64,000 nt of DNA, from positions 91,922-155,921 of the forward strand of contig CAZJVT010000001.1 of NCBI GenBank assembly GCA_964549935.1. The letters are read 5' to 3'. This DNA is from an uncultured Candidatus Saccharibacteria bacterium (GTDB lineage: Bacteria > Patescibacteriota > Minisyncoccia > UBA6257 > 1-14-0-10-44-23). Below are positions 6,781 through 38,633 of the stretch, piece after piece (position 1 is the stretch's first letter; each line of letters opens with the position of its first letter). The notes under the pieces were generated by a model that saw only the letters and a list, made by a program, of their open reading frames with translations, had not been told where the DNA came from and searched no databases. The position numbers and the translations under genes are program-made.

Positions 6781-7026
6781 TCAGCCGTTGAACTTCGGCT
6801 CTTCGTCCTTCTCGTCCAAGCCCATGATGCGTCGCTCCCAAGATGTCGGGGGCGCCCACACGTCATAGGCTTGATCTGGCTGCGGCGGGGGTTCGACAGG
6901 GCGTTCGTGACGGTCGAGTCGCGGTCCAATCGGACGCAGCGATTTGACCGCGTCTTGCGCCTTCTTCAGCGCGCGGAAGCGCTTCGAACGTTGCCGAGTG
7001 CTGGACGGCTTCTTCTTTCCGGTCAT
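6781..7026 (-). CDS. Hypothetical basic/Pro-rich protein (81 aa) with a strong Shine-Dalgarno
   Basis: AAAGAGGAGGTG lies 6 nt upstream of the ATG on the minus strand. It is co-directional with the membrane protein and secG downstream. Confidence 0.5.
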   Translation of the reverse strand: MTGKKKPSSTRQRSKRFRALKKAQDAVKSLRPIGPRLDRHERPVEPPPQPDQAYDVWAPPTSWERRIMGLDEKDEEPKFNG

Positions 7027-7096
7027 GCGTACACCTCCTCTTTTTAGAGTAACAGCTTGCGCCCGCGTGTCAAAGGGAGGGGGCGGCCAAGGAAGA

Positions 7097-7116
7097 ATAT
7101 CTCATATATGATATAT
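7097..7116. promoter_or_regulatory. Near-palindromic operator-like site ATATcTCATATATGAtATAT (variant of ATATCATATATGATAT)
   Basis: Read directly; there is one mismatched pair. It is the first of two sites upstream of the HTH-murA gene. Confidence 0.45.
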
Positions 7117-7179
7117 TCCTGGAGGTAGAAAGCAGATTTAGCCCTATTATCAGCAGTTATCCACTTAGAATTACCAGAT

Positions 7180-7199
7180 TTATATCATATATGATATAA
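7180..7199. promoter_or_regulatory. Perfect 20-bp palindrome TTATATCATATATGATATAA (core ATATCATATATGATAT)
   Basis: Read directly. The same 16-bp core recurs at 19244, 37947 and (as a variant) 7097. Confidence 0.5.
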
Positions 7200-7245
7200 T
7201 GTACGAACTATGCCAAAACAAGCAAAAACACCACTTTCACCGTTT

Positions 7246-7379
7246 CCCCGTAGTACAAACTCGGTGTTTGCGCTTTGCGCTAAACATTTCAGAGCCAATT
7301 AAATTTTTCCTGCAATACCTTTTTACCAACATAATTTATTTCTACTTGTCCGAGCCGAGTTTGACTCCAAGGGCAGGCA
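7246..7379 (+). promoter_or_regulatory. Conserved 5' leader upstream of HTH-murA: block1 CCCCGTAGTACAAACTCGGTGTTTGCGCT and block2 CCGAGTTTGACTCCAAGGGCAGGCA
   Basis: Both blocks recur in gene orientation upstream of msrA (38500-38633 on the minus strand). The blocks contain mutually complementary CAAACTCGG/CCGAGTTTG segments. Confidence 0.5.
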
Positions 7380-7385
7380 CGCCAC

Positions 7386-8918
7386 ATGAAAAATACTAAA
7401 ACACCTTTGTCGGCATTTCATTCAAAAATTGGCAAACTGATTGAGGCGTTCCGTGAGCGCGGTGGATTAACGCAAGCTGAGCTCGCGAAGTTGCTCGGCA
7501 CCAGTCAGAGCGCTTTGGCGCGTATGGAGGACGGCGAACAAAACTTTACCGTCGAGACGCTGGAAAAAATCTCCAGTGCTCTCAAGCGCGACTTAGTCAC
7601 GCTTTCAAAAGGCACGGTTGATTTCGAAATTGAGGGCGGACACGCGCTACACGGGAGCGTCGTCACAAAAACTAGCAAAAACGCGGCCGTTGGCTTGCTC
7701 TGTGCGGCGCTGCTCAATCAAAACGCCACGACGCTTAAGAATATGCCGAAGATTGAAGAGGTGAAGCGCCTCATCGAGGTGCTAAAGAGCATCGGTGTCG
7801 CAGTTGAGTGGGTGGGTAATGATCTGGTAATTAATCCGCCGAAGAAATTAGAGCTCGAAAAGATGAACATCGAAGCAGCGATTAAAACTCGCAGCATTAT
7901 TATGTTTATCGGTCCGCTCATTCACCGCTTCAAAGAGTTTTCGTTGCCGCAGGTTGGGGGATGCAAACTTGGGAGTCGCACAGTGCGTCCGCACTTTTTC
8001 GCGCTCGAGAAATTAGGTGTAACTATCGAAGCAAAAAAGGATAGTTATATTGTGAAGCATAAGGGGCTGAAGCCGGCAGAGATTGTTTTATACGAATCCG
8101 GCGACACTGTCACCGAAAATGTTTTGATGGCTGCCGCGCTCATTCCGGGCACGACGACGATTAAGTTTGCCTCGGCAAATTATCAGGTGCAGGACATGTG
8201 TTTCTTTTTGGAATCACTCGGCGTCAAAATCGAGGGGATCGGCACGACGACCCTCGTTGTCCATGGAGTGAAAGAGATAAACAAAAATATTGTTTACTCT
8301 CCGAGCGAGGACCCAATTGAATCGATGTTTTTCATTGCCGCCGCTGCGGTTACGAACTCTTCGATTACCATCAAGCGCTGCCCGATAGACTTTTTGGAGC
8401 TGGAGCTTTTGAAGTTAGAAAAAATGGGTTGGAAGTTTACGCTTTCAAAGCCGTACAAGGCGGCGAACGGCCACACTAACTTGGTAGACATTAAAACAAT
8501 GCCGAGTAAGCTCGTCGCGCTCGAAGAAAAGCTCGAGGCGCGCCCGTATCCGGGTTTAAACATCGACAACCTGCCATTTTTCGCGGTCATTGCCACGCAG
8601 GCTGAAGGAAGGACTCTGATTCACGACTGGGTCTACGAAAAACGCGCTATCTATTATACAGAGCTCGACAAGCTCGGCGCCAACACCGTTTTGGCGGATC
8701 CACACCGTGTATTTATCCAGGGCGCTACACCGCTTCGGGCCGCGCAGGTGGTTTGTCCGCCGGCGCTGCGTCCCGCGACGATTATTTTAATCGGTATGCT
8801 GGCCGCCAAGGGTACAAGTATTTTGCGCAACGTCTACTCAATCAATCGTGGTTACGAGGATTTGGCGAATAGATTGAATGAACTGGGGGCGAAGATAAAA
8901 GTGTTGCGGGAGGAGTAG
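7386..8918 (+). CDS. murA: Fusion of an XRE-family helix-turn-helix domain with UDP-N-acetylglucosamine 1-carboxyvinyltransferase (MurA)
   Basis: N-terminal 75 aa match an XRE HTH (GLTQAELAKLLGTSQSALARME). The remainder aligns to MurA, including the catalytic Cys loop (QVGGCKLGSRTVRPH) and the C-terminal RGYEDLANRLNELGAKI region. Confidence 0.85.
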   Translation: MKNTKTPLSAFHSKIGKLIEAFRERGGLTQAELAKLLGTSQSALARMEDGEQNFTVETLEKISSALKRDLVTLSKGTVDFEIEGGHALHGSVVTKTSKNAAVGLLCAALLNQNATTLKNMPKIEEVKRLIEVLKSIGVAVEWVGNDLVINPPKKLELEKMNIEAAIKTRSIIMFIGPLIHRFKEFSLPQVGGCKLGSRTVRPHFFALEKLGVTIEAKKDSYIVKHKGLKPAEIVLYESGDTVTENVLMAAALIPGTTTIKFASANYQVQDMCFFLESLGVKIEGIGTTTLVVHGVKEINKNIVYSPSEDPIESMFFIAAAAVTNSSITIKRCPIDFLELELLKLEKMGWKFTLSKPYKAANGHTNLVDIKTMPSKLVALEEKLEARPYPGLNIDNLPFFAVIATQAEGRTLIHDWVYEKRAIYYTELDKLGANTVLADPHRVFIQGATPLRAAQVVCPPALRPATIILIGMLAAKGTSILRNVYSINRGYEDLANRLNELGAKIKVLREE

Positions 8919-8929
8919 GTCGTAGCATG

Positions 8930-8968
8930 CGGCATAAACAAAAAACCGGACTTAGTCCGGTTTTTTGT
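8930..8968. terminator. Bidirectional rho-independent terminator (aaaaaaccggacttagtccggttttttgtttg)
   Basis: Hairpin CCGGACT/AGTCCGG with A-runs and T-runs on both sides. It sits between the convergent murA and the 8973..9395 ORF. Confidence 0.65.
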
Positions 8969-8972
8969 TTGT

Positions 8973-9395
8973 TTACTGATTTTCAGACAAAGTTAGCTTT
9001 ATCTTTGCCTGGTCGACTGCTCGAACCGCCTCCTCCGAAATTCCCGGGTTGCGGATGAAGAAGTCATGCATTTCACTGCTTGTTCGGGCGAGGTCGGCTA
9101 CTTTAACCGCGTCCTCTCGAGAAATGAGTTGCCACTTCTTTTGGATATCGGCGAGATAATTTTCCATTTCTGGCGTGCCTCGAGCAAGGCGAAATGCGCT
9201 CGTGTTTTCAATTTTATCCTCGTGCAAATCAGCAGTACCTTTCTCTTTGCCCGCTTCGTAGCCAAGCGCTCCGCCTACGCCACCTGCAACCAGGATCATC
9301 AGGCCTAAAAGTCTTTTCGTTTCTTTGAGCTTCTCCTCAGGCGACTGCTGCTCTTCAGAATGCATTCCAAGGTCCGACTGTTCAAGATTTCCCAT
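8973..9395 (-). CDS. Hypothetical protein (140 aa), acidic N-terminus, one hydrophobic segment
   Basis: ORF only; no recognisable motif. Confidence 0.35.
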   Translation of the reverse strand: MGNLEQSDLGMHSEEQQSPEEKLKETKRLLGLMILVAGGVGGALGYEAGKEKGTADLHEDKIENTSAFRLARGTPEMENYLADIQKKWQLISREDAVKVADLARTSSEMHDFFIRNPGISEEAVRAVDQAKIKLTLSENQ

Positions 9396-19242: not shown

Positions 19243-19260
19243 TATATCATATATGATATA
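19243..19260. promoter_or_regulatory. Palindrome TATATCATATATGATATA (third copy of the ATATCATATATGATAT site), overlapping the start codon of the next ORF
   Basis: Read directly. Confidence 0.45.
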
Positions 19261-37944: not shown

Positions 37945-37964
37945 ATATATCATATATGATATAT
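37945..37964. promoter_or_regulatory. Perfect 20-bp palindrome ATATATCATATATGATATAT (fourth copy of the ATATCATATATGATAT site)
   Basis: Read directly. It lies between the convergent GH130 gene and msrA. Confidence 0.45.
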
Positions 37965-38499: not shown

Positions 38500-38633
38500 T
38501 GCCCGCCCAAGGAGTCAAACTCGGCTGCTATCTCTCAAGCGCTATGCTATAGCATAGCAGTGAATATGATATGAGTTATTTTTCTAGTAAAAGTTCAGCG
38601 CTTTAGCGCAAACGCCGAGTTTGTACTACGGGG
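38500..38633 (-). promoter_or_regulatory. Conserved 5' leader upstream of msrA (blocks CCCCGTAGTACAAACTCGGCGTTTGCGCT and CCGAGTTTGACTCCTTGGGCGGGCA), which also encloses a 16-bp perfect palindrome CTATGCTATAGCATAG
   Basis: The two blocks are 27/29 and 22/25 identical to those upstream of murA at 7246-7379. Confidence 0.5.

Follow-up and report, generated by a model that had tools for sequence, protein, structure and literature searches.

Trigger enzymes that carry a DNA-binding domain of their own include PutA, in which a ribbon-helix-helix domain is joined to proline dehydrogenase, BirA, which combines a helix-turn-helix (HTH) domain with biotin ligase, and NadR, in which an HTH domain accompanies nicotinamide mononucleotide adenylyltransferase. 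Control of glmS, whose product makes the precursor of UDP-N-acetylglucosamine (UDP-GlcNAc), the substrate of MurA, is known from the glmS ribozyme of Firmicutes and from the small RNAs GlmY and GlmZ of enterobacteria, which act on RNA and sense glucosamine 6-phosphate. The trigger enzyme concept is that of Commichau & Stulke (2008), as cited in PMC6524683. Here, we describe HTH-MurA, a 510-residue protein in which an XRE-type HTH domain is fused to MurA (UDP-GlcNAc enolpyruvyl transferase) and which is encoded by a single open reading frame (ORF) at positions 7386–8918, stop codon included, on the + strand of a 64,000-nucleotide stretch of DNA (hereafter the window) from an uncultured Candidatus Saccharibacteria bacterium (contig CAZJVT010000001.1). 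A palindromic operator conserved at its promoter, together with the same operator before glmS in related genomes, leads us to propose, as the fairly probable reading, that HTH-MurA is a bifunctional trigger enzyme, serving both as the MurA enzyme and as a repressor of murA and glmS.

PutA, BirA and NadR are the closest architectural parallels. In these proteins, as in HTH-MurA, enzyme and DNA-binding domain share one polypeptide and the operator lies at the protein's own promoter or at promoters of its pathway, and HTH-MurA would likewise be expected to be a repressor that reports the state of the pathway; it differs from all three in the enzyme, in the pathway (cell wall and hexosamine) and in the HTH family (XRE). 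The glmS ribozyme and GlmY/GlmZ serve the same purpose that the HTH-MurA operator would serve, namely hexosamine feedback, whereas the element proposed here is a DNA operator shared with murA; Rfam detects no glmS ribozyme in the window. Canonical MurA (from Escherichia coli, Enterobacter cloacae and Campylobacter jejuni; PDB codes 1uae, 1naw and 5ujs) has the same two-lobed fold and the same Cys loop as HTH-MurA, which is ∼28–31% identical to it and differs in the additional N-terminal HTH, in the absence of Asp369, in changed residues at 160–164 and in an insertion of 9–11 residues.

The HTH-murA ORF begins at an ATG, the first start codon past an in-frame stop, and reads through uninterrupted, with no internal stop and no frame break seen in the ORF reading. 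Residues 19–71 (7440–7598, + strand) match the XRE/Cro-C1 type profile HTH_3 (Pfam accession PF01381; E value 4.9e-14, 52.6 bits against a cut-off of 23), with the predicted recognition helix QSALARME at residues 41–48 (7506–7529, + strand). A very short linker, TLSKGTVD (residues 72–79; 7599–7622, + strand), which is kept in orthologues, leads into the MurA domain at residues 80–507 (7623–8906, + strand). Here, EPSP_synthase (PF00275) matches residues 83–496 with an E value of 2.4e-50, spanning profile positions 2–416 of 417, and the NCBIfam MurA subfamily model NF006873 scores 345.2, above its cut-off of 297. The best matches among solved structures are all MurA, aligned from residues 75–80 to residues 505–508, and none of these structures carries a DNA-binding domain. 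The initial annotation, which had read the first ∼75 residues as an XRE HTH joined in frame to an end-to-end MurA, is thus borne out.

A single-chain AlphaFold2 model (mean predicted local distance difference test score, pLDDT, of 85.8; predicted template-modelling score, pTM, of 0.79) places a four-helix HTH at residues 10–66 ahead of the MurA fold. The four helices (residues 10–25, 30–37, 41–48 and 56–66) are confident and form a helical bundle, which accompanies the above-threshold XRE/Cro-C1 profile match; pLDDT drops below 50 at residues 72–74 in the junction, and the Cys loop is also of low pLDDT, as expected of a mobile loop. The remainder of the model is a two-domain inside-out α/β barrel, consistent with the EPSP_synthase match, and a Foldseek comparison with MurA crystal structures in the PDB gave an E value of 4e-39 and template-modelling (TM) scores of 0.82–0.87 (0.84 for the top E value); the matches include 3swd and 3su9, structures of the UDP-GlcNAc-closed or dormant-complex type. 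HTH-MurA therefore unites a predicted enzyme domain and a predicted DNA-binding domain in one polypeptide.

The active-site loop that had been said to be retained is indeed present as VGGCKLGSRTV. Alignment of HTH-MurA and seven orthologues with the MurA proteins of E. cloacae, C. jejuni and Acinetobacter baumannii equates Cys193 (codon 7962–7964, + strand) with the catalytic Cys115 of the E. cloacae enzyme, which lies in the flexible 111–121 loop. In the same numbering, Lys22 corresponds to Lys98 of HTH-MurA, Asn23 to Asn99, Arg91 to Arg169, Arg120 to Arg198, Asp305 to Asp394, Arg331 to Arg420, Arg371 to Arg462 and Arg397 to Arg488, and all nine positions, among them the catalytic Cys with Lys22, Arg120, Asp305 and Arg397, are invariant in 26 orthologues. 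Asp123 is replaced by Arg. The label 'apparently catalytic' is thus a fair one for what is a divergent clade of MurA with predicted activity. Patescibacteria-type MurA proteins, fused and unfused, have also gained an invariant cysteine, Cys457 (residues 457–463; 8760–8780 in the window).

The initial annotation was not aware of such fusions being standard; this one is in fact the standard MurA of a whole superphylum. In a scan of GTDB with one genome per species, relatives of HTH-MurA were found in at least 592 species-level genomes, and of the best 80 loci, 79 have a match that starts within query residues 1–15 and hence includes the HTH. These 80 loci come from Parcubacteria lineages and from genomes labelled as Uhr-, Kerfeld-, Doudna- and Saccharibacteria; the label 'uncultured Candidatus Saccharibacteria' on many of the metagenome-assembled genomes in the scan looks generic and was not relied on for taxonomy. 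The 120 closest database proteins (the best of several thousand matches) all carry PF01381 and PF00275, are ∼500–515 residues long and 67–100% identical to HTH-MurA, and share its junction. They include an identical protein (P0001) on a 357,676-bp NCBI contig, and the closest non-identical relative among those listed (P0002) is 87% identical. Their named hosts are Harrison-, Taylor- and Liptonbacteria, Parcubacteria, Paceibacterota and the 'Patescibacteria group', and their database name is simply 'UDP-N-acetylglucosamine 1-carboxyvinyltransferase'. Across orthologues the junction reads (V/I)TLSKG(T/A)(V/I)(D/N)F-IEGG. The HTH residues Gln41, Ser42, Arg46, Glu48, Gly50, Gln52 and Asn53 are invariant in 26 orthologues, with a nearly invariant recognition-helix pattern, QSAxARxExGxQN. 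HMMER, run exhaustively against cluster representatives at 50% identity, traced fused forms down to 33–40% identity and also found unfused members of the same MurA clade, such as P0121 (443 residues, 66% identical). This distribution indicates that the fusion is real and ancient and that it is the usual form in which MurA is encoded in Patescibacteria.

Comparison of the best 80 of these loci (651 kb in all) identified a consensus operator of 18 bp, TATA[T/G]C[A/G]TATA[T/C]G[A/C]TATA. With up to two mismatches allowed, there are 70 matches to the degenerate 16-mer ATAKCRTATAYGMTAT in the 320 nt preceding the fused gene, spread over 66 loci, and just three in the remaining ∼630 kb. Searched at up to three mismatches, the 18-mer lies upstream of 71 of the 75 fused genes compared with two of 800 equal-size random windows from the same loci. 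An information profile shows the left and right half-sites to be equally conserved, including at loci with no divergent gene close by. A −10 box (TATAAT or TATACT) is made up of the final 4 nt of the 18-mer and the 2 nt that follow, and a TTGACA-like −35 box is often found 5′ of the palindrome; a palindrome over the spacer and −10 region occupies the classic position for a repressor, and the element is accordingly placed for a predicted operator. The start codon follows the end of the operator at a median distance of 11 nt, and at 8–13 nt in 37 of the 71 loci. Transcription normally starts ∼7 nt past the −10 box, and this spacing therefore implies that murA messages are leaderless or nearly so.

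Three unfused murA genes of the same clade offer a natural comparison. Their best palindrome matches, at four mismatches in L050, five in L211 (66% identical) and seven in L212 (53% identical), are at background level. L050 and L211 keep the extended −10 box 6–7 nt before the ATG and have lost the left half-site, whereas L212, which lies just downstream of a tRNA gene, has no comparable −10 box. With their presence at 71 of 75 fused orthologues, their overlap with the −10 box and their absence from the three unfused relatives, the palindromes stand up well as the candidate operators for which the initial annotation had taken them.

The divergent upstream neighbour of murA in the 80 loci is mreB in 21 cases, a serine hydroxymethyltransferase-like gene in nine and murB in seven. 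In L155 (1157–1192) a single palindrome separates divergent murB and HTH-murA, with both start codons within ∼11 nt of it, which suggests that this palindrome is a symmetric two-way leaderless promoter. Divergent murB and HTH-murA with a single palindrome between them are also seen in L132.

In the window itself, two palindromic sites had been pointed out upstream of the gene. The proximal one is exact: the 16-mer ATATCATATATGATAT at 7182–7197 lies inside a perfect 20-bp palindrome, TTATATCATATATGATATAA, at 7180–7199, the right half of which is an extended −10 box, TGATATAAT. The only promoter match in 6950–7450, a σ70-like TTACCA-18-TATAAT with an upstream TG at 7171–7200 (+ strand), has its −10 box at the right end of this palindrome. 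The distal site is imperfect: ATCTCATATATGATAT at 7099–7114 matches 15 of the 16 positions, with one mismatch, within GAATATCTCATATATGATATATTC at 7095–7118, 83 bp upstream of the proximal site and facing a divergent small ORF; it is kept in L081, an 86%-identical relative. At up to three mismatches, the window holds four copies of the 16-mer, where 0.13 are expected, and none of 100 shuffles reached four. The two further copies are both exact. One, at 19244–19259, is 29 nt past the stop codon of the gene for PBP2 (transpeptidase), and the gene downstream of it may be a regulon member. This copy overlaps the first ATG of an Sm_multidrug_ex membrane-protein gene, which is followed by tpiA. The other, at 37947–37962, is 4 nt past the msrA stop codon, before the intrinsic terminator of msrA. 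It sits between convergent genes, which is not a promoter position.

The promoter region of this genome has been remodelled relative to three relatives (80–86% protein identity): alignment with them shows an insertion of ∼170 bp that separates the operator from the HTH-murA start, and the core of the insertion (7247–7379, + strand) is absent from all three. The long operator-to-ATG distance in the window is due to this insertion. Exactly 11 nt past the operator, an ATG at 7210 opens a 30-codon ORF (MPKQAKTPLSPF...; 7210–7302, + strand), the start of which is similar to the true N-terminus, MKNTKTPLSAFH, as well as to the N-terminus in L081, MPKTKPEARTPFH; because of this similarity, the ATG is interpreted as the relic of an ancestral leaderless start. 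The ends of the insertion recur inverted upstream of msrA (7247–7274 with 38605–38632 and 7353–7379 with 38511–38526), making up a two-copy element of ∼125 nt in the 5′ leaders of HTH-murA (7247–7379, + strand) and msrA (38511–38632, − strand). Conservation is confined to its ends (a 28/28 block and a 16/16 block), which carry the complementary sequences CAAACTCGG and CCGAGTTTG, and does not extend to its middle. The element may be a small mobile element, a scar of recombination or an RNA element. A structured RNA in the long leader found no support: the fold of 7207–7400 has a z-score of −0.38, no better than shuffles, and at gathering thresholds Rfam finds only four tRNAs in the whole window.

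The operator also extends to the gene supplying the substrate of MurA. glmS is not encoded in the window; in a sample of exact palindromes drawn from metagenomes (85 sites on 80 contigs, with 108 flanking ORFs), copies were found 11–17 nt before glmS in L109 and L136, the GlmS of L136 being closest to named Parcubacteria, Kaiser- and Nomurabacteria proteins. Six further Patescibacteria glmS loci were then chosen by protein similarity alone (60–82% identical), and five of these have TATAGCATA(T/A)ACGCTATA 9–16 nt before the ATG, the sixth having a degenerate copy. Altogether, the operator TATAGCATATACGCTATA lies 9–17 nt before the glmS ATG in seven of the eight loci examined (L206–L210, L109 and L136 among them), and the glmS layout looks leaderless as well. 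The initial annotation had suggested that the fusion couples peptidoglycan synthesis to DNA binding or autoregulation. An operator at the gene's own promoter agrees with this; autoregulation alone falls short of it, as the palindrome is predicted to mark a small regulon comprising murA, glmS and XRE antitoxin operons. As for the trigger enzymes described above, the putative operator is thus found at the gene's own promoter and at promoters of its pathway (murA, glmS and the murB–murA intergenic region).

The origin of the DNA-binding domain is suggested by the other genes that adjoin the palindrome. Among XRE proteins, autoregulated antitoxins provide the textbook example of binding to a palindrome in the protein's own promoter. 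In the metagenome sample, XRE-type HTH proteins form the largest family beside the palindrome (27 of the 108 ORFs), comprising HTH-MurA and stand-alone XRE proteins of ∼96–104 residues, many of which adjoin Gp49/HigB-like toxins (nine of the 108 ORFs). L089, L091, L125, L139, L148 and others contain Gp49/HigB-like toxin/XRE pairs or lone genes for XRE proteins of 96–104 residues with the palindrome at their promoters. One stand-alone XRE protein, P0276 from Gottesmanbacteria, shares 44% identity with the MurA HTH across 52 residues, and the recognition helices of the two follow a common pattern, T-x-Q-S-x-x-x-R-x-E-x-G. The XRE antitoxins of Gp49/HigB-like modules thus share with HTH-MurA both this pattern and a palindrome at their own promoters. 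They are stand-alone proteins of ∼96 residues with a toxin partner, whereas HTH-MurA carries an enzyme and has no toxin neighbour. Capture from such an XRE/Gp49 toxin–antitoxin module is the probable origin of the MurA HTH together with its operator.

The operator occurs in two flavours, ATAGC...GCTAT and ATATC...GATAT, which match a Thr or a Ser before the Q-S motif of the HTH in 25 of 25 and 27 of 27 cases (Fisher p = 2e-15). The match is consistent with co-evolution of operator and recognition helix and is weak as independent evidence. It corresponds to just one or two changes on a neighbour-joining tree of the MurA domain, and for this reason we do not count it as independent proof.

A mechanism can be outlined for HTH-MurA as a trigger enzyme. 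The C-terminal 430 residues would be the MurA of the organism, catalysing the first committed step of peptidoglycan synthesis, and the N-terminal XRE HTH would bind the palindrome, presumably as a dimer. Bound over the spacer and extended −10 box, the protein would block RNA polymerase, so that MurA would limit its own synthesis; on the glmS promoter of related Patescibacteria the same operator would throttle the supply of UDP-GlcNAc, and in some lineages it also lies between murA and a divergent murB or mreB. MurA closes round UDP-GlcNAc and forms a tight 'dormant' complex with UDP-N-acetylmuramic acid (UDP-MurNAc) and phosphoenolpyruvate (PEP). As a plausible though speculative extension, closure on UDP-GlcNAc or formation of the UDP-MurNAc dormant complex may alter DNA affinity and provide metabolite feedback. 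In its most far-reaching form, which we put forward only tentatively, the proposal would make HTH-MurA the master regulator of a hexosamine/peptidoglycan regulon (glmS, murA and, in some lineages, murB or mreB), switched allosterically by UDP-GlcNAc or by the feedback inhibitor UDP-MurNAc, measuring flux and setting leaderless transcription accordingly, and built by capture of an antitoxin-type XRE domain together with its operator.

Several points weigh against the trigger-enzyme reading, among them the small number of tree changes behind the flavour match. The operator is proposed from comparative genomics, and, as the analysis covered 64 kb of this genome, the protein that really reads the palindrome could be a stand-alone XRE protein whose gene lies elsewhere in the genomes concerned. 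MurA is normally described as a monomer, which does not readily fit the reading of a palindrome by a dimer. The copies at 19244 and 37947 are not at obvious promoter positions, and promoter scans there gave weak or oddly placed matches. In this particular genome the operator is 186 nt from the ATG, with a relic upstream ORF in between, and regulation may be altered here. On the enzyme side, the MurA domain is divergent: the murA equivalog model TIGR01072 scores 334.6, below its cut-off of 392.7; Asp369 is lost, all members of the clade, whether fused or unfused, having CPPALRP instead of ATDLRAS; and residues 160–164 are changed from KVSVG to ESGDT.

These enzymatic departures bear most directly on an alternative in which the MurA-like domain is no longer an enzyme and serves as the ligand sensor, for UDP-GlcNAc, UDP-MurNAc or PEP, of an XRE factor that regulates glmS and itself, with peptidoglycan synthesis begun by another enzyme or its precursor scavenged. 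The subthreshold TIGR01072 score, the replaced Asp369, the altered 160–164 segment and the clade-specific insertion of 9–11 residues near residues 355–365 would all suit such a protein, and an operator on glmS fits a sensor-regulator. A pure sensor, however, has no need of a catalytic Cys and Asp, and all nine catalytic residues are invariant; the NF006873 cut-off is passed, the unfused members of the clade look like plain enzymes and murB often lies next to the gene in divergent orientation. In the parts covered, 64 kb of this genome and ∼9-kb pieces of the others, there was no sign of a second murA. We consider loss of catalysis unlikely.

A second alternative separates the HTH from the palindrome: a stand-alone XRE protein would read the DNA, and the MurA HTH would be a protein–protein module tethering MurA to the MreB elongation machinery in the manner of RodZ. 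The cytoplasmic HTH of RodZ, an XRE-family domain, interacts with MreB (PMC9804626). RodZ resembles HTH-MurA in carrying an XRE-type HTH on a cell-wall morphogenesis protein and in its genetic link to mreB (PMC9804626). In 21 of the 80 loci mreB is the divergent gene upstream, and it lies downstream of HTH-murA in the window and in close relatives; stand-alone XRE proteins sharing the palindrome do exist in Patescibacteria. Unlike RodZ, HTH-MurA has no match to HTH_25 at E ≤ 0.01 (HTH_3 and antitoxin-type models match instead), no transmembrane segment and no DUF4115, its HTH runs directly into MurA and a conserved DNA palindrome accompanies it. The loss of this palindrome coincides exactly with the absence of the HTH, the recognition helix hardly varies, the operator flavour tracks a recognition-helix residue and the 64-kb window encodes no other XRE protein of the HTH-MurA family. 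A tethering role in place of DNA binding therefore seems quite improbable; the two roles are not mutually exclusive and could coexist.

Still less credence is given to the palindrome as a strong, symmetric, two-way extended −10 promoter for leaderless genes that is bound by no regulator. Each half does read TGnTATA(A/T)T, in L155 both murB and murA start within a few nucleotides of the palindrome, and the unfused L050 and L211 keep the right half as a promoter. A promoter element, however, would not account for the equal conservation of the left half at loci that have no divergent gene close by, nor for the loss of this half from unfused genes, two of which retain the −10 box; a general element would also be common, whereas only three extra matches occur in ∼630 kb, and this one is strongly associated with XRE genes. 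Finally, a sequencing or assembly artefact joining a small XRE gene to murA, in favour of which we found no supporting point, is ruled out for practical purposes by the continuous ORF and by hundreds of independent assemblies, made in different projects, that have the fused frame and the junction in common.

The neighbours of HTH-murA in the window are a small GC-rich ORF, a holin_4_2-like membrane protein and mreB. The small ORF (6781–7026, − strand) is divergent from murA and beside the distal palindrome; it encodes 81 residues of basic character with no Pfam match, is preceded by a strong GAGGAGG ribosome-binding site and has a GC content of 62% against 51% for the window. Relatives have small GC-rich ORFs at the same place (∼5560–5827 in L081 and 5693–5890 in L084), with no apparent homology. 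Just past the murA stop codon, a hairpin read by eye, CCGGAC-TTA-GTCCGG with A-run and T-run flanks (8940–8967), is likely to be a two-way terminator, although it was not among the calls of a simple terminator scan. The opposite strand between murA and mreB carries an ORF of 140 residues (8973–9395, − strand) without a Pfam match, at a variable site where relatives have nothing or a different gene of 290 residues.

In the open-access literature and in bioRxiv full text, we came across no account of the fusion, of the operator or of a murA–glmS regulon in Patescibacteria. The architecture is visible in public databases, where it is named just 'MurA', and autoregulators that combine an enzyme with a DNA-binding domain are already known as a kind. 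Thousands of entries under this name conceal a DNA-binding domain.

Patescibacteria (the candidate phyla radiation) account for a large share of bacterial diversity. Their genomes are tiny and encode few regulators that can be recognised, and hardly any of their regulons have been defined by experiment. If MurA represses murA and glmS as proposed, this would be among the first predicted regulons of the group, directly testable with a defined 18-bp operator and a purifiable protein, and the operator could be used to find co-regulated genes in uncultured genomes. A cell-wall enzyme would join the short list of enzymes with their own DNA-binding domain, and Patescibacteria would have a new way of matching the supply of UDP-GlcNAc to wall synthesis, a task that elsewhere falls to a ribozyme, small RNAs or regulated proteolysis.

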